Positions 33,808 to 48,321 of a stretch of 64,000 nucleotides of DNA are shown one piece after another (position 1 is the stretch's first letter; each line of letters begins with the position of its first letter). A program made the position numbers and the translations under genes. The notes under the pieces were generated by a model that did not search any database, was not told where the DNA came from, and worked only from the letters and a program-made list of their open reading frames with translations. This stretch comes from an uncultured Flavobacteriaceae bacterium (GTDB lineage: Bacteria; Pseudomonadota; Alphaproteobacteria; UBA8366; Aestuariispiraceae): positions 41,341 through 105,340 of the forward strand of contig CAYGKA010000007.1 in NCBI GenBank assembly GCA_964350445.1. The letters run 5' to 3'.

Positions 33808-34836
33808 GTGCGGCCACCAGAAGGAACGGCGCCGTTGTCATCCATCAAGGTCGGAATAATCGGGCTCGGCGTCGGCGAACGCCATATCGTCGGCTACCGC
33901 CAGATCGACGGCGTCGACGTGACCGCCATCTGCGATATCGATTCCGCCAAGCTGAAGGAAGTCGGTGACCGGCAGGATATCGCCGCCAGATATACCGACT
34001 ATCGCGCCATGCTGGACGGCGTGGATTTGGATGCGGTCTCGATCTGCTCCTATGACGACGCCCATGCGGACCAGGCGATCGCGGCGTTCGATTCAGGCTT
34101 GCATGTCATGGCCGAAAAGCCCCTCGCCCTGAACCGAACGGACCTTGAACGGGTCATGCAGGCGCAGCGCAAATCGGGCCGCCGCCTCTCGTCCAACCTC
34201 ATCCTGCGGCAAAGCCCGCGGTTCCAGCGGATACGCGACATGGTCCGGGCCGGCGCGTTCGGCGACATTCACTATATGGAAGGGGATTATCTGCATCAGA
34301 TCCTTTGGAAGATCACCGAAGGCTGGCGCGGCAAGATGGATTTCTATTGCGTCACTTATGGCGGCGGCATCCATCTGATCGATCTGATGCGATGGGTCGC
34401 CGGGGAAGAGGTCGTCGAGGTCACCGCGATGGCGGCGAAGAAGGTTACGCGGGACAGCACCTTCAACTATCCGGACACGATGGTCAGTCTGCTGCGCTTC
34501 GAAAGCGACCTGCTGGCGAAGTCGACGACATCCTTCGCCCCCCAGCGCAGACAGATTCATACGCTGAACGTCTACGGCACCAAGCTGAGTTTCGAGAACG
34601 CCAACGGCCCCGGCCGCCTTTACAGCGGCGACAAGCCGGAAGACGAAACCGCCTTCGACGTACCCTACCCCGCGATCGAAAAGGGCGATCTTCTTCCCGA
34701 TTTCATCGCCGCCATCCGGGAAGACCGGGAACCGGTCGTCAGCGCGCAGGACGTCTTTCAGGTGATGAATATCTGCCTTTCCGCCTGGGAAAGCGCCGAG
34801 ACCGGCCGCGCCGTCGCCGTTCCGAAAATCTTCTAG
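33808..34836 (+). CDS. Gfo/Idh/MocA-family NAD(P) sugar oxidoreductase
   Basis: IKVGIIGLGVGERHIVGY Rossmann start and EKPLAL motif. Lies 50 nt after flgK with no terminator seen. The start is uncertain (33808 or TTG 33835). Confidence 0.82.
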   Translation: MRPPEGTAPLSSIKVGIIGLGVGERHIVGYRQIDGVDVTAICDIDSAKLKEVGDRQDIAARYTDYRAMLDGVDLDAVSICSYDDAHADQAIAAFDSGLHVMAEKPLALNRTDLERVMQAQRKSGRRLSSNLILRQSPRFQRIRDMVRAGAFGDIHYMEGDYLHQILWKITEGWRGKMDFYCVTYGGGIHLIDLMRWVAGEEVVEVTAMAAKKVTRDSTFNYPDTMVSLLRFESDLLAKSTTSFAPQRRQIHTLNVYGTKLSFENANGPGRLYSGDKPEDETAFDVPYPAIEKGDLLPDFIAAIREDREPVVSAQDVFQVMNICLSAWESAETGRAVAVPKIF

Positions 34837-34839
34837 GCC

Positions 34840-35481
34840 CTATTTCTTCGAAAAGCTCATCTTCTGGTTCGTCAGGGCATCCGTGTCACCGGTCCAGGCA
34901 TAGACCAGCAGGCAGGGTTCCCGGTCGGCGGTCGTTATCCGGTGCATCTGGCCCGGCGGATTGAAGATCAATGAACCGGGGGCGTAGACGCCCGCATCGT
35001 TTTCCGACGTGTTGCCGGCGATACAGATATAGCTCTCCGTGATCCCCTTGTGGCTGTGCGCGGGATAGGTCGTTTTCGGCGCGAACAGCACGCAGCCGAC
35101 AATAATCTTGTCGCTGACCACCGGGCCGTTCGGCCCCAGGAACTCGGTATAGCCGTATTTGCGGGTCAGGCCGCGCGGCACCTTTTCGTACCCGTATCGC
35201 CAATTCAGCAGGCCACGCAGATCATCGATCGAACGCGCCGCTTTCGCGGTCCGCAGCCCCGTTGCGCTGCTAATCGCGCGGTCCAGATGCTCGCATACCG
35301 GCAATTGTTTCCCCGGCCCGTATTCGATCTCCGGGTCCTCGTCGAAAACCTTCCCCAAGGCCCGGCGGACCTCCGCCATGTGAGAGCGGATTTTGTCACT
35401 GCCGCCGGCGGAGCCCATTTGGTAGAGCTCCAACACGTCACGGAGCAGATATTGCCAGCTTGGCACGTTTGAAAGACGCAT
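34840..35481 (-). CDS. DddL-family cupin (annotated elsewhere as dimethylsulfoniopropionate lyase family)
   Basis: ATG at 35481. FLGPNGPVVSDKIIVGCVLFAPKTTYPAHSHKGITESYICIAGN ... PGQMHRI is a cupin His/Glu metal motif with DddL-like flanks. Confidence 0.65.
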   Translation of the reverse strand: MRLSNVPSWQYLLRDVLELYQMGSAGGSDKIRSHMAEVRRALGKVFDEDPEIEYGPGKQLPVCEHLDRAISSATGLRTAKAARSIDDLRGLLNWRYGYEKVPRGLTRKYGYTEFLGPNGPVVSDKIIVGCVLFAPKTTYPAHSHKGITESYICIAGNTSENDAGVYAPGSLIFNPPGQMHRITTADREPCLLVYAWTGDTDALTNQKMSFSKK

Positions 35482-35621
35482 TATGGGCCCTCTCCACCGG
35501 TTGGATCGTGTGTACGCCTGGGGCGGCCCTTCCCTGGGATGCGACCGACGCACTTGCCCGAAGAAGGCGAATCCGTGCGTGGTCCATTACGTTTTTTTAA
35601 CCATAGCGGTGGCTTAATGCA

Positions 35622-35683: not shown

Positions 35684-36847
35684 ATGACGGCTGCCAATAT
35701 TCCCTTCGGCAAACCCATCCTGGCCGAAGACGCATTCGACGCTGTCCGTCAGGTGCTCGAAAGCGGCATCCTCGTCCATGGGAAGATTACCGAAGCGTTC
35801 GAAGACGCCTTCGCGAAACGGATCGGCGTGAAGCATGCTGTCGCCGTTTCCAGCTGCACGGCCGGCCTGCACCTCGTTCATTTCGCCCGTGGGATCGGGC
35901 ACGGAGACACCGTCGCGGTTCCGGCCATGACCCATGTGGCGACCGCCCATGCCGTCGAACTGGCCGGCGCCCGCCCGCTGTTCATCGATGTCGATGCAAC
36001 CACCGGCAACATGAACCCGGCCCTGCTGGCGAAGGCCGTCGACGACGGCGCAAAACCCGCCGCGATCATGCCCGTTCACTATCTGGGCCTTCCGTGCGAC
36101 ATGGACGCCATCAATGCGACGGCAAAAGACATCGGCGCCTATGTTCTGGAAGACTGCGCCCTTGCGGTGGATGCGACCTATGGCGGACGAAAGGCCGGCG
36201 GGCTCGGCTTGGCCGGCGCGTTTTCCTTTTACCCAGTGAAGCACATGACCTCCATCGAAGGCGGCATGGTGACGACGGATGATGGAGACCTCGCAACCGC
36301 CATCCGCAAGCGCCGGGCCTTCAGCTATAACCGGGCGCTGGGCGAACGCACCCGGCCCGGCATCTACGATGTCGATGCGCTTGGCTATAACTACAGGATG
36401 AGCGAGGTCGAGGCGGCAGTCGGTCTAAGCCAGCTGTCACATCTAGACGGATTTCAGGACGACCGCGCGCGCAACGACGCCATCCTGCGCGAGGGCCTGT
36501 CCGAGATCGCGGAACTGACGATCTTTCCCGATGAACACGGTCCGGCGCGGTCCAGCCATTATTGCTTCAACATCGTCCTCCCCAGGGACGGATCCCTGCC
36601 ACGGAACGCGGTTGTCGATCACCTGAAGGCCAAGGGCGTCGGCACATCGGTCCATTATCCGTCGGCTGTGCCGATGTTTGAATATTACCGCACGAAATAC
36701 GGCTATAAACCGGGGCAATTTCCGGTCGCCGAATGGCTGGGGGAACAAACCATCTCCCTGCCTGTCGCACCGCATGTCAGCGAGAGTGACGCCCGCTACA
36801 TCGTCGAATGCGTGCATGATGCTATAGAAACCGTGAAACGGGGATAA
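35684..36847 (+). CDS. DegT/DnrJ/EryC1/StrS-family sugar aminotransferase (PseC/WecE-like)
   Basis: 387 aa. IPFGKPILAEDAFDAVRQVLESGILVHG ... the lysine-containing region FSFYPVKHMTSIEGG is the conserved PLP site. Confidence 0.88.
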   Translation: MTAANIPFGKPILAEDAFDAVRQVLESGILVHGKITEAFEDAFAKRIGVKHAVAVSSCTAGLHLVHFARGIGHGDTVAVPAMTHVATAHAVELAGARPLFIDVDATTGNMNPALLAKAVDDGAKPAAIMPVHYLGLPCDMDAINATAKDIGAYVLEDCALAVDATYGGRKAGGLGLAGAFSFYPVKHMTSIEGGMVTTDDGDLATAIRKRRAFSYNRALGERTRPGIYDVDALGYNYRMSEVEAAVGLSQLSHLDGFQDDRARNDAILREGLSEIAELTIFPDEHGPARSSHYCFNIVLPRDGSLPRNAVVDHLKAKGVGTSVHYPSAVPMFEYYRTKYGYKPGQFPVAEWLGEQTISLPVAPHVSESDARYIVECVHDAIETVKRG

Positions 36848-36861
36848 CAGGAAACCATTCC

Positions 36862-37941
36862 ATGAGCCACATCCCGTACGAAACACTTGGCCCCAAACTT
36901 TCCGAGCAGCGGATCATGCTGATCGGTGGCGCCGGGTTCATCGGCCACAATCTGGCGCTTGAATTGGCGCGGATGGGTGCGACCGTGATGATCGTCGACA
37001 ACCTGATGGTCAACAGCCTGATCGAGAATTCCTTCGTCGAGGAACAGAACCCGGTTCAGCGAACCGCCTACCGCAATTTCCTGAACGAGCGCTTCTCGCT
37101 GCTGCGGTCCGCGCATGTCCAGCTGCGCAACGCCGATGCCCGCCTGCTCGCCGATCTGGGGCGTTGCTTCGAGGAATTCGAACCGACCAAAGTGGTCCAT
37201 ATGGCGGCCATCGCCAGCGCGGTCGATGCCAAGAAGGAACCTGGCCTAGCCTTCGACCTGCAGCTGATCACCCTGCGGAACACGCTTGAACTGGTCCGGC
37301 CGAAGACCGATCGGATCAATCAAGTCATGTTCATGTCGTCCAGCACGGTCTATGGCGATTTCGAAGGCGACAGCGTCGACGAGCGCAGCTTCCCGCGCCC
37401 GGAAGGGATCTATGCGAACGCGAAGTTCATGGGCGAACGTCTCATCAGAACCTACCGCACCCAATACGGCCTGGGCACCACGGTAATCCGTCCGTCGGCA
37501 TTGTACGGCGAACGCTGCATCTCGCGCCGGGTCAGCCAGATGTTCATCGAGAACGCGTTGACCGGAAAACCGCTTCTGCTGGAAGGTGGCGGCGACGGCC
37601 GTTTGGACTTCACCTATATCCGCGACCTGGTCCAGGGACAGGTTCGCGCACTTGCCCTGCATGACGGGCCCGATGCCTCTAGCACCTTCAACCTGACATT
37701 CGGGAACGCCCGCACGATCGCTGACCTGGCCGCTGTCGTGAAATCGATCGTGCCCGAAGCGATCTTGGAAGACCGCCCCCGTGCCGTCGACAAACCGGTT
37801 CGGGGCACGTTGTCCATCGAACGGGCGAAGACGGTCCTGGGTTTCGAACCCGAATACGGCCTGGAAGACGGCTATCGCCAATATTGCGAATGGTATGTCG
37901 ATGCCTGGCGCCGCGCACAGCGGGAAGCCAATCTGGCCTGA
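36862..37941 (+). CDS. NAD-dependent sugar epimerase/dehydratase (extended SDR)
   Basis: GGAGFIGHNLALEL glycine-rich loop and YANAKFMGE (YxxxK). Confidence 0.85.
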   Translation: MSHIPYETLGPKLSEQRIMLIGGAGFIGHNLALELARMGATVMIVDNLMVNSLIENSFVEEQNPVQRTAYRNFLNERFSLLRSAHVQLRNADARLLADLGRCFEEFEPTKVVHMAAIASAVDAKKEPGLAFDLQLITLRNTLELVRPKTDRINQVMFMSSSTVYGDFEGDSVDERSFPRPEGIYANAKFMGERLIRTYRTQYGLGTTVIRPSALYGERCISRRVSQMFIENALTGKPLLLEGGGDGRLDFTYIRDLVQGQVRALALHDGPDASSTFNLTFGNARTIADLAAVVKSIVPEAILEDRPRAVDKPVRGTLSIERAKTVLGFEPEYGLEDGYRQYCEWYVDAWRRAQREANLA

Positions 37942-38004: not shown

Positions 38005-38718
38005 ATGTCCAAAGATGCGGCTCATATCGTCCTGGCGCGGATGGGCTCACAACGTTTGCCTGGCAAGGCGCTGCTACCCTTGGGCGATACAGTCCTGCTT
38101 GGTCTGACGATCGCGCGTCTGCGGCAAACGAAACAGATTGACCGCATCATTCTGGCGACCACCAATTCCGAACGCGACGACCCCCTTGTCGACTTCGCCA
38201 AGGAACAGGAGATAGAGTATTTCCGTGGAAATTGGCGTGACGTCGCGGGCCGCTGCCTTGCTTGCACCACGCAGTTCCGGCTCGACTGGTTCGTCCGAAT
38301 TTGCGGCGACAGTCCCTATATCGACCCGGCGGTCGTCGACCTTGTCTGCGAGCGATATCTTGACGAACGCCCCGATGTCGCAACGAACGTCCATCCGCGG
38401 ACCTATCCCATCGGCTGCAGCGCCGAAGCCGTCGAGACTGCCGCGCTGCGTCGCCTCTGCGCGACCACGAAGGACATCCGCTATCGCGAGCATGTGACGA
38501 GCTTCTTCTATGAACATGAGGACATGTTCAACATCGAGAATGTCGCCATCCCCGATAACCGTTATGAAGGTGTCTCGATCGCCGTCGATACGCCCTCTGA
38601 CTATGAGCGCACGCAATGGGTCTACAAACATCTCAGCGACCCGCTGACAGCGTCGGTCGACGAAATCGTGGACGTGTCGATGCGCTGGGGCGGCAAAGAC
38701 GACAAGAAATTGGTTTAA
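38005..38718 (+). CDS. SpsF/NeuA-type cytidylyltransferase-family protein
   Basis: AHIVLARMGSQRLPGKALLPLGD is the N-terminal nucleotide-binding signature of the acylneuraminate cytidylyltransferase/SpsF family. Confidence 0.75.
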   Translation: MSKDAAHIVLARMGSQRLPGKALLPLGDTVLLGLTIARLRQTKQIDRIILATTNSERDDPLVDFAKEQEIEYFRGNWRDVAGRCLACTTQFRLDWFVRICGDSPYIDPAVVDLVCERYLDERPDVATNVHPRTYPIGCSAEAVETAALRRLCATTKDIRYREHVTSFFYEHEDMFNIENVAIPDNRYEGVSIAVDTPSDYERTQWVYKHLSDPLTASVDEIVDVSMRWGGKDDKKLV

Positions 38719-38755: not shown

Positions 38756-39094
38756 ATGAAAATCGATCACCTCGACCCACCCCGCACTTTCAACGTCAAA
38801 GGCGTCACCATCACGCATAGCGCCGATATCCATCTGTCGGCCGACGAGATGGTCACGTTCAAAACGGCAAGCGGTGCGGAATACGACGTCGCGGCCAAGG
38901 AGTGGGGTTTCTACGCCACACCCTCGACGAACGGCCGGTTGAAAAATCACGGGTTCCGCAGCGCGCTCTGCCGAAACGAACTTACCGGCATGCGTTACGT
39001 GCTGTTGGTTGAAGCGGCGAAGATCGATGCTTTCGACGCCTATTGCCGGGACCAGAATATGGCGGTGGAGGTCTGGCTGGACGAAGACGTCTGA
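38756..39094 (+). CDS. Hypothetical protein (112 aa), last gene of the + strand sugar operon
   Basis: Clean ORF, 37 nt after the cytidylyltransferase gene. No family recognised. Confidence 0.55.
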   Translation: MKIDHLDPPRTFNVKGVTITHSADIHLSADEMVTFKTASGAEYDVAAKEWGFYATPSTNGRLKNHGFRSALCRNELTGMRYVLLVEAAKIDAFDAYCRDQNMAVEVWLDEDV

Positions 39095-39111: not shown

Positions 39112-39816
39112 CTAGTCCCCTGGAGTCCAGTGCCAGGTATCGGCGCGGTTGATCTCGACGAATCCCAGGTTGCGGTAAAGCGAAAGCGACGATGGATTTC
39201 CTGCCTGTGTCCCAACCAGCATTGTGGGGACCACCTGGCGGTAGTGGTTCAGTGCGGCGGAAACAAGCGCACGGCCAATTCCTCTCCCCTGCCGGTCAGG
39301 ATCCACCGCGATGAGGTCGATCACCGCGACGTCTGGGCGTTGGAGAAGCGCGCAAAATCCGGCAACTTGGCCAGCCACCTCCGCAACGAGGGTGAGGTCG
39401 GCCCGCCCGCGCAGATCGTTTTCTATCCAGTCCGCCTTCAAGGCGTCGGCTTTGTCGTCATCTATTGCAGGGTCCGCGTGAAACCGGTCCCAGCGCAACG
39501 CGGCAACGGCAATCCGGCGGCATGCGGCCACATCCCCTTCATTCCCGGCGCGAACCGCCGGCACGCCGGATGGGGCCGCGACGAGGCCGGCCATCTTGAA
39601 CTGCAACGTAACCAGCGTCTCGACCTTGCGGAACCCAGCGGCAGCCAGCACAGCGCCGCTACCGTCGACGCGACAACTAATGAGAACCGCGCCGGATTCC
39701 CGGCCTTGCCGGACGGCGCCATCCGCGCGTTCGGGATCAGCACAGTCGAAGACCGGACCGTCCAGGTATTGCGACTCGAAAGGGCAAGCCGTTAGAAGCG
39801 CATCAGACTTATCCAT
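39112..39816 (-). CDS. Two-domain GNAT N-acetyltransferase (WecD/PseH-like)
   Basis: C-terminal acetyl-CoA motif VDPDRQGRGIGRALVSAAL. N-terminal CPFESQYLDG... domain, as in TDP-fucosamine acetyltransferase-type enzymes. Confidence 0.75.
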   Translation of the reverse strand: MDKSDALLTACPFESQYLDGPVFDCADPERADGAVRQGRESGAVLISCRVDGSGAVLAAAGFRKVETLVTLQFKMAGLVAAPSGVPAVRAGNEGDVAACRRIAVAALRWDRFHADPAIDDDKADALKADWIENDLRGRADLTLVAEVAGQVAGFCALLQRPDVAVIDLIAVDPDRQGRGIGRALVSAALNHYRQVVPTMLVGTQAGNPSSLSLYRNLGFVEINRADTWHWTPGD

Positions 39817-40658: not shown

Positions 40659-41390
40659 TCAGAGCTGGCTCGTATATCGTTCGAAACGCTGCTTGCAGAG
40701 TTCCTTCAGCACGGAGGGCATGAAACCGTAGAAACGGCCGCTACGGTTTTGCGGCCGGCTGATGAACTGGCCGAAGGTCTCCAGCATGTGCAAGCCCTGC
40801 ATCACAAGCTGAATGCAAACTTCCGTGTTCGCAGCCCGGAATTCGTGCATTTCCATGTCGGGTTCGATCGGGATTGCCGCGCTCAACACCACGCCGCCCC
40901 GGTCATTGTTCGATTCAACACGGTGTAATGTGGACACTAGGCCGTCGAAATCCTTGTGGTAGATGGCCCACAAATGGGTATCGATCCCGAAATAGTCCTC
41001 GGGATTGGCGCCGTGCAAATTGACGATCCGCTCGGGACGGATGTCGATCAACTCTTCCGACAGACGCCCGGTGCCATAGACGATGATTGCGTCGGGATCG
41101 AATTCGCGGATCCTCTGGACGCAGTCAGGGTCGTTGATGTCATGATATGTATGGGTCGGCGCGAAATCGCCCAGGGCTGGCGTCTTGCCATCGAACCAAA
41201 GCTTCTTTTCATAGGTTTCGCTTTCGGATTCGAAATCGTGATGCGTATCGAATTCCGCGGAAATCGGGCGGCGCTCCTCGAACACCATCACATGCGACAC
41301 GTTCTTCGCTATTTCCTTAACGAAGTACGAGTGGTGGATGGTTTCGGTCGTCAGGATAGCGACGCGCATGTCGGTTGGCTTTTCCGCCAT
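40659..41390 (-). CDS. Formyltransferase-fold protein (Formyl_trans_N-like)
   Basis: RVAILTTETIHH ... IVNLHGANPEDYFG ... NNDRGGVV shows the Asn/His/Asp catalytic pattern. The start is uncertain (41390, 41369 or 41426) and overlaps the upstream gene's end. Confidence 0.65.
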   Translation of the reverse strand: MAEKPTDMRVAILTTETIHHSYFVKEIAKNVSHVMVFEERRPISAEFDTHHDFESESETYEKKLWFDGKTPALGDFAPTHTYHDINDPDCVQRIREFDPDAIIVYGTGRLSEELIDIRPERIVNLHGANPEDYFGIDTHLWAIYHKDFDGLVSTLHRVESNNDRGGVVLSAAIPIEPDMEMHEFRAANTEVCIQLVMQGLHMLETFGQFISRPQNRSGRFYGFMPSVLKELCKQRFERYTSQL

Positions 41391-42511
41391 GACCAATCCT
41401 CGATTAAAAAGCCCGGTATCTTCCATACATCGGAATCACGGCGCCAGATTGCAGGATTCCGAAAGCTCTCGCAAACCTGCCAAAACCATTCTTCGGGCAG
41501 CCCTTGGAAGGCGCAGAACGCCTTGATGTCTTCATCGGGAGCTTCCCACCCTTTACGACGAACGATTTCAATCGCTTCTTCTCTGGTTGTCATGCCCATC
41601 CTAATCTGAACCGACAGGTTATCAAAGCTGCGTGTGATGCCGAATTTGTACCATTTGAGAAAGTGATGCAGTGAGATGAAGCGGCAGTCTATATCGGCAA
41701 AGTCCCAGGTGCCGGTCTTGAGGTGGCTGGCGTCCGATTTAAAGCCGCGTTCCGCGGCAATCCTGGCATTCTCGAAACTGTTCCATTTGAAAAAGGACCC
41801 TAGGAAAACCGATTCCAGTTTGAAATCGCCGGGCCCGTCCCCGGCCTCCCCCAACGCATAGGCGGCGAGGTCGTCTTCCGTCAGGCCTTCCGCGCTGATC
41901 CAATCCGCGGCGTTCGTGGATTGCAGACATCCGTGCTTGGCAAGCCATTCCCTGTCCAGATGGGTCGCCAGCCGTTCGTCCTTCGCTCCGCCATATTCAA
42001 GCTGGGCGTTCTCGCCCCAAACGATCAGTGGAATGCGCAACTGCAGGGCGAGCCGTATCGGAATGGCAAACAACGCCATATGCATGGGAAGGCCGGTCGC
42101 GCCCAATTTTTCGAAAGCAGCCTTCATGAATCGACGCTCGACATCGGGGTTTATCGTGTAGTCGATGTGATCCACGCCAAGACAGCGGATCATACTGTCC
42201 AGGTTCTGCTGCCCGATTTCGGTGCGTGCCGGGGTCCGCCAGGTAACGGCCAAGACTTTCAGGCCGAATTCCTGCGCCTTGATGATCTGATACCAGCTGT
42301 CCTTGCCGCCGCTGACCGGGACGATGCAATCATAACCGGCGCTACGCTCCTTCGCATCGGCCACGAGCGCCGCGAACGCGGCCTCCCTGGCGGGCCAATC
42401 GATGTGGTGTTCCTTGTCCTCATGTCCCCGGCACGCCGAACATATCCCCGCCTCGTCGATGGTCAGGCCCGGTCGTGTATCCGGCAGAATGCATCTTTCG
42501 CAGTAGCGCAT
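41351..42511 (-). CDS. N-acetyl sugar amidotransferase (PP-loop; PseA/WbpG family)
   Basis: MRYCERCILPDTRPGLTIDEAGICSACRGH (Zn-ribbon) followed by the PP-loop VPVSGGKDSWYQ. Confidence 0.82.
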   Translation of the reverse strand: MRYCERCILPDTRPGLTIDEAGICSACRGHEDKEHHIDWPAREAAFAALVADAKERSAGYDCIVPVSGGKDSWYQIIKAQEFGLKVLAVTWRTPARTEIGQQNLDSMIRCLGVDHIDYTINPDVERRFMKAAFEKLGATGLPMHMALFAIPIRLALQLRIPLIVWGENAQLEYGGAKDERLATHLDREWLAKHGCLQSTNAADWISAEGLTEDDLAAYALGEAGDGPGDFKLESVFLGSFFKWNSFENARIAAERGFKSDASHLKTGTWDFADIDCRFISLHHFLKWYKFGITRSFDNLSVQIRMGMTTREEAIEIVRRKGWEAPDEDIKAFCAFQGLPEEWFWQVCESFRNPAIWRRDSDVWKIPGFLIEDWSWRKSQPTCASLS

Positions 42512-42521: not shown

Positions 42522-44354
42522 TCACAAATCGGCCGTAGCCGCCCTATCCATGAACAGTTTGGCCGATATCAAGGAAAACAGAAACTTGCTTTCACTGTTC
42601 AACGACGCCCCCTGTCCCAGGAAGGATTCGACCTTGTCCCGATCCACGATGTCGTAGAACGGGGAGTTATCCAGAATAGCGCACCGGACTTTCGGGGCAG
42701 TGACGTCGATCATATTCGTAACCGGCGCGTTGATACCCTGCTTGCGCGGGTTTGCCATGATCTCCGGTGCGGCAATTCCCTCACCCGCCTTTCGAAGCAG
42801 GTATTTGGGCAACCCGTCATGGATCAAATGGCGCGTCGGAACGGTCGTGAGAAAATCGGCCAGCCGGCTGTCCAGAAAAGCCGCACGGTTCTCGACCGAA
42901 TAGGCCATGGCGGCCAAATCGTCTTCGTGCAGCATCACAGGTACGGTCTCGACGAACAACTCGTTCAACATTCGACCGCGCAATGGGTCGTCCGCATAGT
43001 CCTTTTCCCGGTGCGGCTCGTCGAACGGATCCCGCAAAAAATTGGCGAACCGGTCCGCCTCCAGGAAAATGTGATCGCGTGATGCCGGGTTTTCGATGAA
43101 GGCGCGCGGGTTCTGAAGAAACGGGTTCCGCACGAACCGGCCATAGGTTCCCCGCCACTCTTCCACCAAATTGTCAAAACCCGGGCGGTCCTTCTGCGAC
43201 GCCAGCCAGAAGAGATAGTGGTCATAGTAGCCCGAGAACAACTCGTCTGCGCCGGTCCCGCCCAAGGAAACCTTGAACCCCGCCTGGTGGATCTTTTCGG
43301 AGACCAGCGCATGGAGGTAATAGGAAATCGTCATCAGCGGACCGTCAAAATAATCGATCAGTCCCTCCAACCGCTCCAGGAAACCGTCCTTCGGAATTCT
43401 GATCGCGTGGTGGTCGCAGCCGAAATACTCGACGGCCCTGCGGATACTGGCCGTTTCGTCATACCGGGGGTCATCGTCCAGAACGGAGAACGCCGTGACC
43501 TTACGGCCGAGGACGTTTTGTGCGACGCCGGCAATGACATTGGAATCGATGCCACCGCTTAACCGGACGGCGACGGGGACGTCCGCGCGCAACCGGTATT
43601 CGATAGCGTCGACCACATGCTTCCTGGCCTTTTCGACTGCTTCTTCCAGCGTCATCTCGCGGGGCGCGTAACGAAGCGACCAATAAGGCCGCGGAGAAAT
43701 CTGTCGATCGCCTGCGATCTGGGCGATCATACCGGCGGGGAATTCGGAAACGCCTTCATGGAACGTCTCCCCCGCCGCATAGAGCGCCTTGTAGCCGTTC
43801 ACGAGGTAGCGGCGGATTTGCGCGACATTCACTGCCGGTTTCTCCCCGGCCATGACCGCAAGCGCTTTCACTTCGGAGGCGAAGAACAACCCGTCCGGCC
43901 GGTTCCATAGATAAAGCGGCTTTTCACCAAAGCGGTCCCGGCTGAGCAGCACGACGTCCCGCGACGAGTCGTGCAGCGCGAAGGCCCACATCCCCTCGAA
44001 CCGCTCGACCGCCGCCGCGCCCCAATGGCGATAGGCTTCCAGAATGACTTCCGTATCGCCGGTCGTAGCGAATTCGGCGCCGAGATCGCGCAGCTCAGCC
44101 CGCAATTCCGGATAGTTGTAGACCTCTCCGTTGTAGATCAGCGTCATTCCATGCTTCCGGAAGGGCTGATCGGAACGGGTATCGAGGTCGACGATCGATA
44201 ACCGCGTGTGCATCAGGGAAAGGCTTCCCTGTCCCAGCGGAACCACAGCATGTCCGCTGCCATCCGGACCGCGCGTCCGCATACGGTCGAGCACCCTGCT
44301 CAGACGGACACCGTCCAGAGGTTCTGATGTTATCGCGCCGGCAATTCCGCACAT
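42522..44354 (-). CDS. Asparagine synthase (glutamine-hydrolysing) family amidotransferase
   Basis: N-terminal nucleophile MCGIAG and PP-loop-like RLSGGIDSN; 610 aa. Confidence 0.85.
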   Translation of the reverse strand: MCGIAGAITSEPLDGVRLSRVLDRMRTRGPDGSGHAVVPLGQGSLSLMHTRLSIVDLDTRSDQPFRKHGMTLIYNGEVYNYPELRAELRDLGAEFATTGDTEVILEAYRHWGAAAVERFEGMWAFALHDSSRDVVLLSRDRFGEKPLYLWNRPDGLFFASEVKALAVMAGEKPAVNVAQIRRYLVNGYKALYAAGETFHEGVSEFPAGMIAQIAGDRQISPRPYWSLRYAPREMTLEEAVEKARKHVVDAIEYRLRADVPVAVRLSGGIDSNVIAGVAQNVLGRKVTAFSVLDDDPRYDETASIRRAVEYFGCDHHAIRIPKDGFLERLEGLIDYFDGPLMTISYYLHALVSEKIHQAGFKVSLGGTGADELFSGYYDHYLFWLASQKDRPGFDNLVEEWRGTYGRFVRNPFLQNPRAFIENPASRDHIFLEADRFANFLRDPFDEPHREKDYADDPLRGRMLNELFVETVPVMLHEDDLAAMAYSVENRAAFLDSRLADFLTTVPTRHLIHDGLPKYLLRKAGEGIAAPEIMANPRKQGINAPVTNMIDVTAPKVRCAILDNSPFYDIVDRDKVESFLGQGASLNSESKFLFSLISAKLFMDRAATADL

Positions 44355-44375
44355 GGCTCTAGACCGGCCGCGTGG

Positions 44376-46373
44376 TCATGCCGCGACGGCCGCGACCTTG
44401 GAGCGCAGATCAGCGGCAAGTTCCGCGCTGCTCTGCCGCATTTCCGCGACGAGGCCCAGCATGGTGTCGCGGAAGAATTCAAAGAACGGTCCGCGCTCGC
44501 CCACGTCCATCCGGCGATACGCCCGGTACAGAAACGTGAAACAAACCATCATTGTGCCGACATGCATGCGCTGCACGCAGACATCCACATCCGGCGCAGC
44601 ATTGTCCTCAAGCAGACGTTTGAATTCATCGTAGAATTTTCGAAGGTCCAGATTATCCGCGGATGCGGATTTCAACACGCCCTCGATGCCGGCGTAGAAC
44701 TGGTCCATCGCCTCCGCGAGAATTTCCAACTTCTCGGGCGGCGCCATTTCCCTCCGCTCGGCGGCATCGAACTCGCCGCGCAACCGTTCCAACTCCCGGC
44801 TCTTGCGGGAAATATCCCCCTCCAGAACCGCTGATTGGGGCAGGCAGGGAATCGCGCCCGGAATGCGGATACCGTCACTGAGGTTGCGGACAACCGCGTC
44901 CTTGTAGCGCGCGATCAACCCCGAGAAACTGACGCTGGCGTATAGAAAACTATGATTGGTCTGGACTGTTCCGCCAAAATTTCCCGGTGAGGATATCGTG
45001 TATTTCGTTGCGTTCAGATGGTCAGGATGACTTGCAAGAAATCCTTCATCGGCGACATAGACGGAATGGCGCCCATGATGAACCGATGCATCCCGGGACC
45101 CTAAATCGACGCCGACGAGATACAATTGCCTGAAACCCATGCCGAGCGCGATGCGCGCGGCCGTGTTGGCAACCGTCGGGGCGGCGTAATAGACCTCCCC
45201 GAACCGCTGCCCGAACAATTTCGACGAACAGACGGAGTCGCGGAAGAACAGGATCCGGTTCCCGAAACAGGCGGCCATTTCCGGGCGCACCGTATTGCTG
45301 GCGATCAACGAAATCCGCGACAGATCGTACTTCTCCGAGAGGGATTGAATGATTTCCACCGGACCCGGTGTATTTTCGATCTCGACATGGAAGTCGGGAT
45401 AGATCCCGTGCCCGAGAAGCGCGCCCAGCCCCGTACCGCAGCTGATGACGACGGCGTCATCCTTATGCAGGCGAACGAATTCCGCGCCCTCGTCGATCGA
45501 CGGACCCGACCCGCACACGATCACCGGGCTGCGCTTCGCAACGCGCGGCTTGTCGGCATAGACCAACATATCCTGGCTGGTCACGTTGCCGACGTAGTTG
45601 CGGATCATCACCTGCTCGTCCTCGAAAAAGCCCGGGTTCGAGGACAGCAAGGGCAGCCGGTCAAGAAATCGCTTCTTGGCTTCGGAAAGCACGGCGGAAG
45701 GATAGTGATCGAAGATGTAGGACCCATCGATCAACCCGAAGGAATCCTGCCGCATCATGTAGAAGAGGAAGTTCGCGATGACCTCCGGCGTGTCGTGGAT
45801 AACGAAGTTCAGCAGACCGTTGCGCCGGTGGATCGTCTCGAACAGCGGCGTGAGTTCCACTTGACGCATGGCGTGATAAAGAAATTCATCGAACTGTTCC
45901 ACAACAATGACAGAGCGCACATCAAGTCGCTCGATCAAGGGTTCCAGGTGTAGGCCAAGGCCGAGGCCGAAGATGATCAGGTATCCGCCATCGGCATCCA
46001 CTTCGTGATCCCGCCCCATGATGCCCTTGTCCTGCAGGTAACCGACACCGGCGCCGACCATCCGTTCCGCCACACGGTCGTATTCCTCGGGAACGCCTGG
46101 CCAGCCTTGCAGGATACGTTGATATCGAACGTTCTTGTAGGCATCGACTTGTTGGGCCGTGAAGGAAACGGCATCTCCCGCATAGAGCATGGAATGCCCA
46201 AGATCGATATTCAGGGTCCCGTCTTCGCTTTTTCCGACAACCCTGGAATAAGGTTCCATCACCCCGGCGAAACGCGGAGCCAGATGCGGCTGATACTTCC
46301 GCATCGCTTCCAAATTCCGTTCAAAGAGCCCTTCGGCCATATCGATACGCCTTGTATTTCCGAGCGAATTCAT
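44376..46373 (-). CDS. Motility-associated factor (Maf, DUF115) flagellin glycosyltransferase family protein
   Basis: LFERNLEAMRKYQPHLA N-terminus, central VIVCGSGPSIDE (MptE-like/DUF115) and a helical C-terminal domain. 665 aa, next to the flagellin genes. Confidence 0.8.
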   Translation of the reverse strand: MNSLGNTRRIDMAEGLFERNLEAMRKYQPHLAPRFAGVMEPYSRVVGKSEDGTLNIDLGHSMLYAGDAVSFTAQQVDAYKNVRYQRILQGWPGVPEEYDRVAERMVGAGVGYLQDKGIMGRDHEVDADGGYLIIFGLGLGLHLEPLIERLDVRSVIVVEQFDEFLYHAMRQVELTPLFETIHRRNGLLNFVIHDTPEVIANFLFYMMRQDSFGLIDGSYIFDHYPSAVLSEAKKRFLDRLPLLSSNPGFFEDEQVMIRNYVGNVTSQDMLVYADKPRVAKRSPVIVCGSGPSIDEGAEFVRLHKDDAVVISCGTGLGALLGHGIYPDFHVEIENTPGPVEIIQSLSEKYDLSRISLIASNTVRPEMAACFGNRILFFRDSVCSSKLFGQRFGEVYYAAPTVANTAARIALGMGFRQLYLVGVDLGSRDASVHHGRHSVYVADEGFLASHPDHLNATKYTISSPGNFGGTVQTNHSFLYASVSFSGLIARYKDAVVRNLSDGIRIPGAIPCLPQSAVLEGDISRKSRELERLRGEFDAAERREMAPPEKLEILAEAMDQFYAGIEGVLKSASADNLDLRKFYDEFKRLLEDNAAPDVDVCVQRMHVGTMMVCFTFLYRAYRRMDVGERGPFFEFFRDTMLGLVAEMRQSSAELAADLRSKVAAVAA

Positions 46374-46386
46374 AGAGTTACGAGAA

Positions 46387-48321
46387 TCAGGAAGACATTA
46401 CCGCAACTTTCCTCAATACATCAACAAATGAACCCGACAGGTCCTTCGACCTTTCAGGCAGCAGAGCATCTCGAACTTTACCGTCCATTTCCTCTTTCGC
46501 GGCATTGAGAACCTCGATCCCGCCGCCCAACTCGGTCGCCTTCGAGAGCATCGCTTCGAGGTCAGTCACAACCAAATCGCCAAGGCCGATCTGCCGAAGC
46601 AAGGCCGATGAAACATGGTTGCCGGTCACCCCCATCGTCCGAACCAGAATGGGACAGGAATTGGTGATTGCCTCCCAGGTCAGGTTCAGGTCTCCGTCAG
46701 GCCCAGGGTCCAAAACGAAATCCACATTCCCGATGAAATTGTCGATCGCCTTTGCGGAATTCTTTTCCGGCTCGCTGTAGTCCAACCGGTCAAGTATCCC
46801 GGCTTTTTCCAATCTGGGTTCGATCACGTCCAAACCGGGAGTTCCGCCGATTGCGATCGGATTCACCACGAGTCGGATCGTCGGATTCGCGCCGCACAAC
46901 TGCGCAAGCATTGCGAGAAAGTCATCGTTCAATTTTCTTGGCGGCGCGGAAATACCGACGCGGACCGGCATCCACGGCAAGGCTTTCCGAACCGCCGGCA
47001 CCGTGACATCCGGTTCGAAGGCGAAAGGCCGGCACGCCACACGCTCTCCGTTGTTCAACAGAACGCCGTCTCCGTCGATCGATCCTTCGTGAATGACCGC
47101 ATCCGCATCGGCAATCCCAAACCAGGACAAAACCACGGGCGCGGGTTTGGCGCCGACCGCCCCCATGCGCCCGGTGGCGCCGTGGCCATCCAAGTCTATC
47201 AGGACGTCGATCCGATCGTTCCGCACGATGCGCGCGACGGTGGCGTCATCAACCTCGCCGATATCGGTCCAGTCTGCGACACTCCCGCGGATCTTTCGGG
47301 TCAGGGCGTCGTCCCACACATTATTGCTATACACATGCACGCTGACATCGGGTTTTCCGTGAACGGTGAACGCAGGCCAAAATGCCTCCAACCCCTGCAA
47401 CCCACGCAAGCGTCCGCCCAAAAGACCAATCCGCAGGACACCGCCCGCAACAGGCTCCGATCGCGGCAACGGCCGCTCTCGATCCGGCTTGAAACTGATC
47501 TCCCACAATCGCTCGGATTTGCGGATATCTTCCGGGTCGAGCCCCGGCAAAACATACAAGTCCCTGATCAGGGCGGACCTGACGCTGGGTGAACCCGGCA
47601 ATTCCTGAACCGCCTTGATATGGCAGGATTGCGCCTCATCGAAACTGCCGATGATGGTGAGGATTTGCGCAACGGCAGACATATCTTCGAAACTGGCCTT
47701 GCGGATCGATGAAAGCGCCTGGCTGGCAAGAAGCGCCTCATAGGGTTGCCCCATCTGAACCAGGCAATGCCGTAAGCCCCGCCACCCGCGGTCATCCGAG
47801 GATTTCGTCTCCACCCCCGCGCGGAATTCGACCGCCGCTTCGACATACCGCCCTTCGCGCATCAGGTTGAGACCGGCATCCACCTTGTCGCTACGGTCCA
47901 TTCCCCGCATGGCATCTTCAAAGGAGCCTAGCCATGCCGGCAGCAAACCGGGAATAGTCGCAGCATGTGGTAAAGAAGGCGATAATTTACCATAGAAGAG
48001 AGCATCGTTCAGACGCGCCAATTTGGCGCTGACGATCGCCAATGCCTCGCAATGTTCACGGACATCGGGGGCGGCGTCATGGGCAATGCGAAAAAGTTCT
48101 TCCGCCCGCAGCGCGCTGTCCATGCGCATGGCTGATAGACCCAATACATGAATGGCCGCGCCATAACCGGGCGCGATCTTGATCGCCTCGCCGGTCGCAT
48201 CGACTGCCGATTCGGTATCGCCCACCTCCAGGGAAGCAAGCGCCTTCGCCAAAAGGACGTCGGCCTTTTCGCGATCTCCCGACATGCGCAAATGCCCTTC
48301 TATATGCGATTCAACGGGCAA
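46387..48321 (-). CDS. TPR-repeat protein fused to a GT41 (SPY/OGT-like) glycosyltransferase domain, FlmG-like
   Basis: N-terminal TPRs (GDTESAVDATGEAIKIAPGYGAA...). C-terminal LRIGLLGGRLRG ... IDVLIDLDGHGATGRMGAVGAKPAPVVLSWFG resembles the GT41 fold. TTG at 48321 or ATG at 48285. Confidence 0.75.
   Translation of the reverse strand: MPVESHIEGHLRMSGDREKADVLLAKALASLEVGDTESAVDATGEAIKIAPGYGAAIHVLGLSAMRMDSALRAEELFRIAHDAAPDVREHCEALAIVSAKLARLNDALFYGKLSPSLPHAATIPGLLPAWLGSFEDAMRGMDRSDKVDAGLNLMREGRYVEAAVEFRAGVETKSSDDRGWRGLRHCLVQMGQPYEALLASQALSSIRKASFEDMSAVAQILTIIGSFDEAQSCHIKAVQELPGSPSVRSALIRDLYVLPGLDPEDIRKSERLWEISFKPDRERPLPRSEPVAGGVLRIGLLGGRLRGLQGLEAFWPAFTVHGKPDVSVHVYSNNVWDDALTRKIRGSVADWTDIGEVDDATVARIVRNDRIDVLIDLDGHGATGRMGAVGAKPAPVVLSWFGIADADAVIHEGSIDGDGVLLNNGERVACRPFAFEPDVTVPAVRKALPWMPVRVGISAPPRKLNDDFLAMLAQLCGANPTIRLVVNPIAIGGTPGLDVIEPRLEKAGILDRLDYSEPEKNSAKAIDNFIGNVDFVLDPGPDGDLNLTWEAITNSCPILVRTMGVTGNHVSSALLRQIGLGDLVVTDLEAMLSKATELGGGIEVLNAAKEEMDGKVRDALLPERSKDLSGSFVDVLRKVAVMSS

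Follow-up and report, generated by a model that had tools for sequence, protein, structure and literature searches.

The window analysed here, a 64,000-nucleotide stretch of DNA, probably carries a flagellin O-glycosylation island of a Hwanghaeella-like marine alphaproteobacterium, dedicated to a Leg-like nonulosonate whose synthase has been lost and is supplied from elsewhere. The sugar that the island assembles and transfers is most likely sialic-acid-like and heavily decorated, and the route to it uncharacterised. The genes flgK and flgL are separated by 17,427 bp, and the interval, from the end of flgK (33757) to the start of flgL (51185), contains 13 ORFs plus two flagellin genes (Table 1). 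These coordinates agree with those of an initial annotation of the same DNA, and all of its family calls for the 13 genes held in Pfam and NCBIfam profile searches.

Table 1. Features of the flagellar glycosylation locus, in window coordinates
Feature	Coordinates	Strand	Profile evidence and remarks
flgK (hook-associated protein 1)	31712..33757	+	PF22638, PF06429
Gfo/Idh/MocA NAD(P) oxidoreductase	33808..34836	+	PF01408 (E=4e-22), PF22725, PF02894
DddL-like cupin (DMSP lyase family)	34840..35553	-	PF16867, E=2e-36
DegT/DnrJ/EryC1 PLP aminotransferase	35684..36847	+	PF01041, 355 bits, E=5e-106
Extended SDR	36862..37941	+	PF01370/PF16363
CTP_transf_3 cytidylyltransferase (SpsF/KdsB-like, CMP-type)	38005..38718	+	PF02348, 85.6 bits
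112-aa conserved ORF, end of Gfo cassette	38756..39094	+	no family
GNAT N-acyltransferase (WecD-like)	39112..39816	-	PF00583
SAM methyltransferase	39809..40648	-	PF13489/PF08241
Formyltransferase-fold protein 1	40659..41426	-	PF00551, 37.5 bits; N-terminal domain only
WbuX/PseA-family N-acetyl-sugar amidotransferase	41351..42511	-	TIGR03573, 317.5 bits (cutoff 203)
AsnB-type glutamine-dependent amidotransferase	42522..44354	-	TIGR01536, 367.6 bits (cutoff 267); PF00733 + GATase_7
maf-asnB spacer, 21 bp	44355..44375		position of NeuB/LegI-like gene in relatives
Maf flagellin nonulosonate glycosyltransferase (motility-associated factor)	44376..46340	-	PF20157 + PF01973
TPR (N-terminal) + GT41-like GT-B glycosyltransferase (C-terminal)	46387..48321	-	TPR_14/TPR_19; PF13844 at 21 bits
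Flagellin 1	48484..49389	-	PF00669/PF00700; 301 aa, 20% Ser+Thr
Flagellin 2	49905..50810	-	301 aa, 23% Ser+Thr
flgL (hook-associated protein 3)	51185..52201	+	PF00700
flaF	52473..53015	+	PF07309
Formyltransferase-fold protein 2	53032..53694	+	PF00551, 47.9 bits; flaF on one side, flbT on the other
flbT	53735..54142	-	PF07378

Five of the 13 ORFs are on the plus strand and eight on the minus strand, so the island is not one operon. The initial annotation had described a single island wedged between flgK and flgL; the location is correct, but the locus is better described as two cassettes that belong with separate flagellar operons. Cassette B, on the plus strand, extends the flgI-flgK operon and comprises the genes for Gfo/Idh/MocA, DegT, the extended SDR, the cytidylyltransferase and the 112-aa protein. 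Its 5' neighbour flgK, 50 bp from the Gfo gene, is probably co-transcribed with it. Cassette A, on the minus strand and 3' of the flagellins, encodes TPR-GT41, Maf, AsnB, WbuX/PseA, a formyltransferase-fold protein, a Zn-ribbon methyltransferase and, as the final gene of the operon, GNAT. In locus L083, the order flgK-Gfo-DegT-SDR-cytidylyltransferase is present though the remainder of the island is missing, and in seven genomes only the Maf cassette accompanies the flagellins. In these seven related islands cassette B is not local, so the genes of the pathway are clearly not all kept at one site in the genome.

The boundary of the island was drawn too narrowly, omitting a second formyltransferase-fold gene that is a member of the conserved system. 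This gene is found in 17 of 22 window-type islands, and tblastn detected no homologue in L054 or L077, both canonical Pse loci. The two flagellins (75% identical to each other) are the presumed glycan acceptors; flagellin 1 has a terminator-like hairpin at 48436-48415 and flagellin 2 a strong one at 49845-49820.

Synteny bears out a flagellin-linked sugar-modification island. Gene order is kept in 22 species-level genomes, adjoining flgL-flaF-flbT and flagellin genes, with flgL next to the flagellins in every related island. The island is common to about two dozen marine alphaproteobacteria, and its arrangement is not a product of chance. In comparisons with H. grinnelliae, dN/dS is 0.02-0.15 for island genes at a dS of about 1, a range that leaves out GNAT, for which dS was not estimable. 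The remaining island genes are under strong purifying selection, and all ORFs and catalytic motifs are intact. In the literature, we found no experimental data for any organism with the island. It is very improbable that the genes instead serve LPS or capsule synthesis, or are a decaying remnant after NeuB loss, with no working flagellin system. O-antigen clusters commonly hold WbuX, AsnB and formyltransferase families, and related cassettes do occur away from flagellar genes (L084), as a role in LPS or capsule would allow. However, linkage to flgK, flgL, flaF, flbT and flagellins is tight and repeated in the 22 genomes, and the island contains Maf and TPR-GT genes but none for Wzx, Wzy or a polyprenyl-phosphate glycosyltransferase. 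Decay would fit the missing NeuB, but it is at odds with the intact ORFs and motifs and with the dN/dS values at this divergence.

The DddL-like cupin, which had been counted among the island enzymes, is a passenger outside the conserved glycosylation set, because it is restricted to the Hwanghaeella clade (the window, L001, L004 and L005). No cupin lies between Gfo and DegT in L006, L002/L010, L008, L083 or L084. Its dN/dS is 0.064.

The reported absence of NeuB, PseB and PseG from the window was borne out by tblastn and Pfam. With a relative's NeuB as the query, tblastn gave no match in the 64-kb window at E<=10; no nonulosonate synthase, NeuC/LegG, PseB or PseG was found within it, and Pfam assigned its other large ORFs only to metabolism genes and flgI/flgJ-like genes. 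From this absence the initial annotation had reasoned that the product is not obviously the textbook pseudaminic or legionaminic acid; the argument that it is then perhaps no nonulosonate is weakened by the relatives. In 16 of the 22 related islands, a NeuB/LegI-like synthase gene lies exactly between maf and asnB, where the window has a short spacer with no synthase remnant. NeuB is missing on three separate branches of the AsnB+WbuX+Maf tree, and the window sits on one of these, in a clade where the synthase gene was lost from the island. Given the 16 islands with NeuB and the position of the window in a clade that lost it, the product is most likely a nonulosonic acid. The NeuB of the relatives fits the NeuB/LegI model (259 bits) better than the PseI model (199 bits), and the backbone would be a nonulosonic acid, with nine carbons, of NeuB/Leg-like and not of Pse type. 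A synthase lost from the maf-asnB position would have to come from another genome location; no NeuB lies within 10 kb of four further Maf loci in H. grinnelliae.

The enzyme set is atypical, as first proposed. PseB, PseG, PseH, LegB, LegG and PtmE are absent or far below curated cutoffs among the window genes, and no island copy among the 22 encodes PseB, PseG, LegB or LegG. In the SDR, the Ser-Tyr-Lys site (MSSSTVYGD...YANAK) is of the epimerase type and lacks the dehydratase Asp/Glu, a Val aligning to the UXS Glu; by its motifs the protein is predicted to be an epimerase/oxidoreductase rather than a 4,6-dehydratase. No island gene is more conserved (96-97% identity within Hwanghaeella, 79-87% in distant islands; dN/dS 0.02), and it has 3536 homologues at E<=1e-30. 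DegT carries the PLP-lysine motif SFYPVK, and its best NCBIfam model is PseC (300 bits, cutoff 423), with LegC at 194 (cutoff 420). For the cytidylyltransferase, NCBIfam gave weak KdsB matches only (PseF, 18 bits), and the PDB an uncharacterised cytidylyltransferase (6OEW, 104 bits). We propose that it is a CMP-nonulosonate synthetase: a cytidylyltransferase with the weak-KdsB profile of the window's enzyme takes the PseF slot in the canonical Pse island L054, and SpsF-type enzymes fill this role for CMP-Leg (PMC7439481). NCBIfam equivalog cutoffs are reached neither by DegT nor by the cytidylyltransferase nor by the relatives' NeuB, so none is orthologous to a characterised Pse/Leg enzyme. 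The 112-aa ORF had no match in Pfam or NCBIfam; its identity across 13 related loci is 48-79%, its dN/dS is 0.105, and its single-sequence AF2 model (pLDDT 50) is unusable.

Among the tailoring enzymes, WbuX/PseA has a Cys-rich N-terminal ribbon and a PP-loop (SGGKDS at residue 67), and its family converts acetamido to acetamidino groups. AsnB begins with MCG and has its PP-loop (SGGIDS) at residue 266. The N-terminus of the methyltransferase is a CxxC...CxxC zinc ribbon with Cys pairs at residues 11 and 47, and GNAT scores 62-69 bits on WecD models, under cutoff. The true start of formyltransferase-fold protein 1 is probably near 41390; the gene prediction for its orthologue in L001 gives 243 aa.

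We infer the substrate, step order, decoration positions and transferase roles as follows. Gfo would oxidise a sugar hydroxyl to a keto group, feeding DegT, which would transaminate it, so that an amino group could be installed without an encoded 4,6-dehydratase. The SDR would epimerise or reduce one position, and the cytidylyltransferase would yield the CMP-sugar. WbuX may then convert acetamido to acetamidino, AsnB may form an amide, and the methyl-, formyl- and acetyltransferases may attach additional groups. Finally, while both flagellins are still in the cytoplasm and not yet exported, Maf and/or TPR-GT41 would move the sugar onto their Ser/Thr residues.

A less probable alternative is that a NeuB-like enzyme, Gfo, DegT, SDR, cytidylyltransferase and tailoring enzymes amount to a complete pathway in which the dehydratase and hydrolase steps of Pse/Leg synthesis are skipped. 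Common metabolites would give a sialic/Kdn-type or Kdo-type acid, which would be CMP-activated and then oxidised and transaminated to an undescribed amino-nonulosonate or amino-octulosonate, with a housekeeping or paralogous synthase feeding the NeuB-less lineages. Oxidation and transamination might occur on the CMP-sugar, as with ElaA. Under either reading, the ElaABC system offers a precedent for Gfo, in that a Gfo/Idh/MocA enzyme, ElaA, oxidises a CMP-nonulosonate (PMC13656337). The window's Gfo (EKP motif at residue 103), which adjoins DegT in L002, L083 and L084, has as its second-best and longest PDB match TM_0414 (3EZY; 84.5 bits), the structure reported closest to ElaA. Neither a PseB/LegB-type dehydratase nor a PseG/LegG-type hydrolase occurs in the 22 islands or two single-operon versions, and the SDR lacks dehydratase residues. 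In support of one pathway, under the main reading too, L084/L085 have one co-directional operon with NeuB (57% identity between orthologues), AsnB (49%), Gfo (50%), DegT (59%), SDR (66%) and cytidylyltransferase (37%), plus WbuX, methyltransferase and formyltransferase. The P0361 contig again unites this combination in a single operon, with a NeuC-like Epimerase_2 and a second NeuB just downstream, as expected of a Neu5Ac feed; transfer of Neu5Ac and Kdo is within the Maf repertoire. Other Rhodospirillales loci (L054) combine flagellins, FlaF and FlbT with this TPR-GT41/Maf pair and carry a complete pseB-C-H-G-I set next to flgL. Because these loci encode an entire Pse pathway, completeness of the variant island is plausible as well. 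Yet this route is pieced together purely by inference, no gene in the islands would supply ManNAc or an equivalent, seven related islands have no local cassette B, and the best DegT model, PseC, acts on a UDP-4-keto-6-deoxy sugar.

Known flagellin nonulosonate transferases fall into two classes, Maf and FlmG. The window's Maf lacks an internal TPR domain, matches 5MU5, the structure of Maf from M. magneticum (234.7 bits), is identical from Met12 onward to database protein P0125, and shares 87% identity with the H. grinnelliae Maf. The TPR-GT41 protein is FlmG-like in architecture; of 79 Maf loci, 28 have its gene immediately upstream of maf. Over residues 288-621 it matches 5DJS, a bacterial OGT-like protein (E=1.9e-17), as well as SPINDLY and XcOGT, and orthologues pass the PF13844 threshold (36-54 bits). 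To our knowledge, GT41 enzymes of known donor use UDP- or GDP-sugars, not CMP-sugars, which counts against a Leg-like nonulosonate; the SPINDLY donor is GDP-fucose, and the matching GT41 homologues are annotated as UDP-GlcNAc transferases.

These matches would suit a different product, a di-N-acyl aminohexose or hexuronamide made by Gfo, DegT, GNAT/formyltransferases, WbuX, AsnB and SDR and attached from a UDP-sugar by the GT41-like enzyme, with Maf using a separate donor; we regard this as unlikely. Toolkits for di-N-acyl hexuronic acids do resemble the combination of Gfo, DegT, acetyltransferase, WbpG-like, AsnB-like and formyltransferase enzymes. WbuX would here be WbpG-like and AsnB presumably WbpS-like, giving sugars as in the Pseudomonas aeruginosa O5/O6 O-antigen. 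Both the pairing of Gfo with DegT and the placement in the WbpG/WbuX family are secure, and the SDR is of the WbpP/GalE type. However, Gfo matches WbpB weakly (33.8 bits), and Pfam found no UDP-GlcNAc 6-dehydrogenase or nucleotidyl-1-phosphate transferase in the island. Moreover, the CMP-type cytidylyltransferase is integral, always linked to the Gfo-DegT-SDR cassette, and a NeuB-family synthase is co-operonic in 16/22 islands and in both single-operon versions.

The interval between flgK and flgL in the window is 17,427 bp long. An ORF listing with a filter on third-codon-position G+C places 13 sugar-modification genes and two flagellin genes within it, as the initial annotation had described, and Pfam and NCBIfam scans upheld each of the families named there (see table). 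The annotation had also reported that NeuB, PseB and PseG are missing from the window. This was borne out: tblastn with the NeuB of a relative gave no match even at E<=10, and Pfam assigned the other large ORFs to metabolism, apart from flgI and a rod-binding protein.

Features of the flagellin locus, with positions counted within the window
Feature	Position	Strand	Basis or context
flgK	31712-33757	+	ORF listing, third-codon-position G+C filter
Gfo/Idh/MocA oxidoreductase		+	Pfam, NCBIfam
DMSP-lyase/DddL-type cupin (DddL-type DMSP lyase homologue)	34840-35553	-	PF16867, E=2e-36
DegT		+	Pfam, NCBIfam
Extended SDR		+	Pfam, NCBIfam
CTP_transf_3 cytidylyltransferase		+	Pfam, NCBIfam
112-aa ORF without a family		+	Pfam, NCBIfam
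WecD-like GNAT		-	Pfam, NCBIfam
Methyltransferase		-	Pfam, NCBIfam
Formyl_trans_N protein (FMT1)	40659-41426	-	Pfam, NCBIfam
WbuX/PseA		-	Pfam, NCBIfam
AsnB		-	Pfam, NCBIfam
Maf		-	Pfam, NCBIfam
TPR plus GT41-like protein		-	Pfam, NCBIfam
Two flagellins		-	Pfam, NCBIfam
Terminator-like hairpin	48436-48415	-	directly 3' of a flagellin gene
Terminator-like hairpin	49845-49820	-	directly 3' of a flagellin gene
flgL	51185-52201	+	ORF listing, third-codon-position G+C filter
Second formyltransferase-fold protein (FMT2)	53032-53694		between flaF and flbT; in 17/22 islands

The two flagellins, which are 75% identical to each other and contain 20-23% Ser+Thr, lie ∼2 kb from maf. A scan of the window for promoters and terminators gave counts not above those of shuffled controls, the only meaningful-looking items being the hairpins that follow each flagellin gene; the one at 49845-49820 is strong, with 11 pairs, 8 of them G-C. 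Genes from the TPR-GT41 protein through GNAT are spaced by -76 to +46 bp. Because a hairpin directly follows each flagellin gene, the arrangement suggests that the flagellins are monocistronic and that the TPR-GT41-to-GNAT genes form a separate operon. Beyond flbT, the window (54410-61136, minus strand) encodes DctPQM, a transporter of the TRAP type, together with a two-component system of the sigma-54 type, made up of a Cache histidine kinase and an NtrC-like regulator. L001, a Hwanghaeella-clade locus, likewise has a TRAP transporter after flbT. No tie between these window genes and the island is evident.

A scan based on a Maf alignment, with one genome per species, yielded 79 loci, onto which the window proteins were then mapped. 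This comparison of synteny with relatives, proposed in the initial annotation, found the same island in 22 species-level genomes, including Hwanghaeella, Aestuariispira, Marivibrio, Curvivirga, Pacificispira and many MAGs. The common order is flbT / FMT2 / flaF / flgL, then flagellin(s) - TPR-GT - Maf - [NeuB] - AsnB - WbuX - FMT1 - methyltransferase - GNAT, then (112-aa ORF) - cytidylyltransferase - SDR - DegT - Gfo. Since this order is kept across 22 species-level genomes, the island is real, conserved, tied to flagellar genes and not particular to the window genome. The window Maf is 87% identical to that of Hwanghaeella grinnelliae and, from Met12 on, identical to a database protein (P0125); Met12 is its real start, and an exact-sequence look-up from there gave only one 4-kb Logan contig, which is 99.95% identical to the window. 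Some Maf loci resembling alphaproteobacterial ones carry other labels, namely Flavobacteriaceae (L007, L032), Mesoflavibacter sp. (L020, CP051228.1), Bacteroidota (L056) and Acidobacteria (L061), and the full FlaF/FlbT island is present in L007 and L020. These labels suggest mis-binned contigs or mislabelled assemblies.

The sugar genes appear to comprise two cassettes, one running on the minus strand from the TPR-GT41 protein through GNAT (cassette A) and the other containing Gfo, DegT, SDR, cytidylyltransferase and the 112-aa ORF on the plus strand (cassette B). Seven related islands stop at GNAT, with housekeeping genes next, and at one locus (L083) flgI, a rod-binding gene and flgK are followed directly by Gfo-DegT-SDR-cytidylyltransferase and then dprA. 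For these reasons, cassette B is seen as an extension of the flgK operon and cassette A as an extension of the flagellin locus; the two are juxtaposed in the window, and the sugar genes therefore fall between flgK and flgL. Gene order elsewhere argues that the cassettes belong together, because orthologues of both share one operon at two loci (L084/L085) and again on a metagenomic contig (P0361). In L084/L085, a single co-directional operon holds orthologues of NeuB (57% identical), AsnB (49%), Gfo (50%), DegT (59%), SDR (66%) and the cytidylyltransferase (37%), along with WbuX, a methyltransferase and a formyltransferase. On the P0361 contig, the order is AsnB-HisH-FMT-deacetylase-NeuB-HisF-WbuX-MTase-GNAT-Gfo-DegT-SDR-CTase, and a second NeuB and a NeuC-like Epimerase_2 gene lie downstream. 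The window holds 9 of the 10 recurrent genes. The operon of L084 (1-21074) and L085 is large and non-flagellar. Beside the NeuB-AsnB and Gfo-DegT-SDR-cytidylyltransferase sets, it contains three WbuX paralogues, two HisH/HisF pairs, two each of DegT, CMP-type cytidylyltransferase and Gfo-like genes, and a DUF4910/DUF2172 protein. By its content, it resembles a cluster devoted to multiply amidinated sugars.

In 16 of the 22 related islands, a NeuB-family gene, first noticed in locus L002, sits exactly between maf and asnB. In the window, where maf likewise lies beside the flagellins, only 21 bp separate these two genes, and there is no NeuB remnant. A neighbour-joining tree of AsnB, WbuX and Maf (1568 columns) puts the NeuB-less islands on three separate branches (L007/L014; L006 with Hwanghaeella and the window; L028), and a NeuB-positive island (L010) is placed between them. 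This placement implies that NeuB was cleanly lost two or three times independently. Island genes compared with those of H. grinnelliae show dS of ∼1 and dN/dS of 0.02-0.15, except for GNAT, whose dS was not estimable; the pathway is therefore still under selection although the island has no synthase of its own. The missing NeuB had been taken as a sign that the product is not obviously textbook pseudaminic or legionaminic acid, a weak argument given that the loss is lineage-specific. The NeuB of the relatives scores 259 bits on the NeuB/LegI model (TIGR03569, cutoff 399.65) and 199 bits on PseI, below cutoff in both cases. The simplest reading of these comparisons is that the product would be a nonulosonic acid of the Neu/Leg-like stereochemical family, with the synthase supplied in trans in the window lineage. 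None of the best 120 matches listed to the relatives' NeuB is a named Hwanghaeella protein, which is not evidence of absence.

The enzymes of cassette B depart from the textbook set. Catalytic motifs of Gfo (EKP) and DegT (SFYPVK) are intact, and the two genes are adjacent in all relatives, being parted in the window solely by the DddL insertion. The best model for DegT is PseC (TIGR03588), at 300 bits against a cutoff of 423.5; the PseC of a canonical Pse island in a Stellaceae MAG (L054) reaches 488 bits. On Leg models, the window's DegT and SDR proteins remain far below cutoff (LegB, 51 bits versus 475; LegC, 194 bits versus 420). The SDR is the most conserved island gene, 96-97% identical within Hwanghaeella and 79-87% in distant islands (dN/dS 0.02), and it has 3536 homologues at E<=1e-30. 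RmlB-type dehydratases carry Asp-Glu at the active-site position where this SDR has Val. Because its segment MSSSTVYGD...YANAK has Val aligned with a Glu of UDP-xylose synthase, the protein is predicted to be GalE/WbpP-like, acting as an epimerase or an oxidoreductase instead of a 4,6-dehydratase. A cryptic PseB or LegB was also considered and ruled out, as the dehydratase acid/base residues are missing from the motif; no match to the PseB model was reported for it by NCBIfam, compared to 521 bits for the L054 PseB. No PseG-, LegG- or PtmE-like gene was found in any island copy, nor did Pfam or NCBIfam reveal an Epimerase_2 or CBS-nucleotidyltransferase in the window. The 112-aa ORF has no Pfam/NCBIfam family, and its single-sequence AlphaFold2 model has a pLDDT of 50.

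The cytidylyltransferase scores just 18.5 bits on the PseF model (TIGR03584, cutoff 205.7). An SpsF/KdsB-like enzyme with the same weak profile fills the CMP-synthetase slot in L054, and this type would thus appear to serve as CMP-synthetase in a textbook Pse island. Such a role fits the requirement for SpsF in Leg transfer in Bacillus (PMC7439481). Collectively, the case for an atypical enzyme set is sound; it is drawn from the lack of dehydratase and hydrolase steps and from the Gfo-DegT-SDR-cytidylyltransferase cassette, which recurs.

Canonical Pse islands of the Rhodospirillales provide a direct comparison. In L054 and a second locus (L077), pse genes adjoin flgK-flgL, and flagellins, FlaF, FlbT and the TPR-GT41/Maf pair are all present. 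The full set in L054 runs flgK-flgL-PseB (521 bits)-PseC (488)-CTase-PseH-PseG-PseI (477)-Maf-TPR-GT-FlaF-FlbT-flagellin, with PseB, PseC, PseH, PseG and PseI at or near their cutoffs. The window has in common with L054 and the M. magneticum Maf system the flagellins, FlaF, FlbT, the TPR-GT41 and Maf pair, the SpsF/KdsB-like cytidylyltransferase type and a Maf homologous to 5MU5. However, the place of the pse set is taken in the window by Gfo, a DegT that scores below threshold and an SDR of the epimerase-like type, and AsnB, WbuX, a methyltransferase and formyltransferase-fold proteins are present in addition. The site differs as well, the L054 pse set following flgK-flgL whereas the sugar genes of the window lie between the two. 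That a full pathway can be encoded within a flagellar island, as in L054, lends some weight to the variant island being a complete but different pathway. Beside maf, the canonical islands contain conserved genes of 288-299 aa without a Pfam or NCBIfam family (L054, 11876-12742, minus strand; L077, 11930-12829 and 12890-13786, both minus strand) that have no window counterpart.

Several tailoring enzymes are well defined. WbuX/PseA/WbpG matches TIGR03573 over model positions 1-343 of 344 (317.5 bits, cutoff 203.2) and has the PP-loop SGGKDS; AsnB scores 367.6 bits on TIGR01536 (cutoff 267.1) and has both an MCG N-terminus, providing the Cys nucleophile, and the PP-loop SGGIDS. The methyltransferase begins with CxxC...CxxC, and in NCBIfam GNAT matches WecD models and not PseH. 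While the families of the original 13-gene list stand, its membership needs two changes. First, FMT2 was missing from the list; no homologue of it was found by tblastn in the canonical loci L054 and L077, and it belongs to the glycosylation system. Second, the cupin is a passenger. It is found solely in the Hwanghaeella clade (the window, L001, L004 and L005), where it is inserted between Gfo and DegT and runs opposite to them. It is under purifying selection (dN/dS 0.064) and is more probably a sign of algal-associated DMSP catabolism than of glycosylation. A role as a sugar 3,5-epimerase or isomerase was dropped in favor of a DddL-like passenger, given the PF16867 match and the restriction to Hwanghaeella.

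Two putative transferases are encoded side by side. Maf scores 148.5 bits on PF20157 (cutoff 23.5) and 104.4 bits on PF01973 (cutoff 34.6), and its residues 5-527 match 5MU5, the structure of the M. magneticum Maf, with 234.7 bits; no TPR domain was found in it. Its neighbor has TPR_14 and TPR_19 matches in residues 20-200 and is GT41-like over residues 288-621, with similarity to 5DJS (bacterial OGT-like, E=1.9e-17), SPINDLY and XcOGT; orthologues exceed the PF13844 threshold. Homologues of this protein occur in 37 of the 79 Maf loci, and in 28 they lie directly upstream of maf, canonical Pse islands included. In architecture, it is like FlmG of Caulobacter crescentus and Brevundimonas, also an alphaproteobacterial protein of ∼600 aa, encoded with flagellar genes, with N-terminal TPRs and a C-terminal GT-B domain. 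Published work describes FlmG as a 596-aa protein, with a flagellin-binding N-terminal TPR region and a GT-B domain at residues 309-596, that is confined to Caulobacterales. The likeness is one of architecture. The transferase domain in the window resembles GT41 (OGT/SPINDLY), and FlmG acts alone, in organisms without Maf, whereas the window protein is encoded directly upstream of one.

Maf is reported to require either its own TPR domain (Maf-1) or an adaptor, GlfM (Maf-2) (bioRxiv 10.1101/2023.12.03.569772). These flagellin-binding determinants are needed by the Maf-type flagellin sialyltransferases of Shewanella oneidensis, Maf-1 being TPR-fused. In contrast, the window has a Maf without TPRs, no conserved GlfM-like ORF at the island, and a neighboring TPR protein with a glycosyltransferase domain of its own. 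[quoted passage not shown] Two ORFs considered as GlfM-like adaptors, both on the plus strand, were rejected as probably not genes: one of 90 aa (52201-52473) is not called in L001 and has matches within Hwanghaeella only, and one of 88 aa (49635-49901) has no tblastn match in the fetched loci. The placement of the TPR-GT41 gene upstream of maf bears both on how Maf recognizes flagellin and on whether FlmG-like proteins are truly limited to Caulobacterales.

Other known systems resemble the island in part. In Campylobacter jejuni and C. coli, pse, ptm/leg and maf genes lie at the flagellin locus, which encodes PseB/G/H/I, LegB/G/H/I and PtmE, the amidotransferases PseA and Cj1324, and the methyltransferase Cj1325/6. 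The likeness extends to sugar genes beside flagellins, Maf, a WbuX/PseA-type amidotransferase (acetamidino), a methyltransferase, DegT, an SDR and a CMP-synthetase. However, none of PseB/G/H/I, LegB/G/H/I and PtmE is present or at cutoff in the window, which goes beyond Campylobacter in having Gfo/Idh/MocA, AsnB, two formyltransferase-fold proteins and TPR-GT41. The a-type island of Pseudomonas aeruginosa, between flgL and fliC, is likewise a multi-gene sugar island amid late flagellar genes beside flagellin; it has different enzymes and a rhamnose-initiated glycan, and is not known to have Maf, NeuB or CMP-sugar logic.

In composition, cassette B resembles ElaABC of Acinetobacter baumannii KL49, where an oxidoreductase of the Gfo/Idh/MocA family is also encoded together with a CMP-nonulosonate synthetase and an SDR. 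ElaA, of the Gfo family, was modelled by docking as oxidizing the C8-OH of CMP-Leg5,7Ac2; ElaB is the CMP-synthetase and ElaC the re-reducing SDR, and the product is 8-epi-legionaminic acid (PMC13656337). The structure reported as closest to ElaA is TM_0414 (3EZY) (PMC13656337). Among the PDB matches of the window Gfo, this structure ranks second and is the longest. ElaC is a classical tetrameric SDR, whereas that of the window is extended. The window cassette also has an extra DegT, implying amination instead of, or besides, epimerization.

Oxidation by a Gfo/Idh/MocA enzyme followed by DegT transamination is an established route to an amino group that avoids dehydration (WbpB/WbpE). On the basis of the Gfo-DegT adjacency, this chemistry, the ElaA precedent and the shared TM_0414 match, we propose that cassette B would activate a nonulosonate and introduce or re-configure a substituent. 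Cassette A would then decorate the sugar, with WbuX adding an acetamidino group, AsnB an amide, and other enzymes methyl, formyl and acetyl groups, and Maf and/or TPR-GT41 would transfer it to the Ser/Thr-rich flagellins. In this scheme, we infer which step follows which, where the sugar is modified and which nucleotide carrier is used at each stage. In its fullest form, the proposal is that a NeuB-like synthase, Gfo, DegT, an epimerase-type SDR, an SpsF-like cytidylyltransferase and AsnB/WbuX/formyl/methyl/acetyl tailoring constitute a self-contained, undescribed route to a new amino-nonulosonic acid (or, if NeuB-less, an amino-octulosonic acid). Oxidation and transamination, not a 4,6-dehydratase, would provide the amino group, possibly on the CMP-sugar; attachment would be by a hitherto unrecognized Maf and TPR-GT41 (FlmG-like) pair, widespread in Rhodospirillales. 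We regard this as a long shot, with the odds well against it as a whole.

What the initial annotation observed holds up, and so does part of its interpretation. Flagellin glycosylation islands are a known kind, and the locus is one of a conserved but uncharacterized variant type. Searches of the literature on Hwanghaeella, and on Gfo together with nonulosonate and flagellin, found no characterization of such an island, and no literature was found on the flagellins of organisms bearing it. Lacking dehydratase and hydrolase steps and carrying the Gfo-DegT-SDR-cytidylyltransferase cassette, the island leaves room for what may be a new nonulosonate derivative or route. Nonulosonate glycosylation of flagellin is required for filament assembly and motility in several studied bacteria, and the enzymes are wanted for glyco-engineering. 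The island type is common to at least 22 marine alphaproteobacterial species and is echoed in non-flagellar operons. Because a conserved Gfo-DegT-SDR-cytidylyltransferase cassette, with many tailoring enzymes, stands in for the textbook Pse set, the type is a concrete candidate for a nonulosonate derivative, or a biosynthetic logic, that is new. H. grinnelliae is cultured, and the predictions are thus directly testable. Genomes of H. grinnelliae (L035, L048, L071, L082), Hwanghaeella sp. (L038, L043) and Aestuariispira insulae (L046, L051, L080) contain three to five Maf paralogues each, at separate loci. These extra loci have no flagellin, DegT or NeuB within 10 kb, and several of the paralogues have an AsnB homologue (43-46% identical) as partner.
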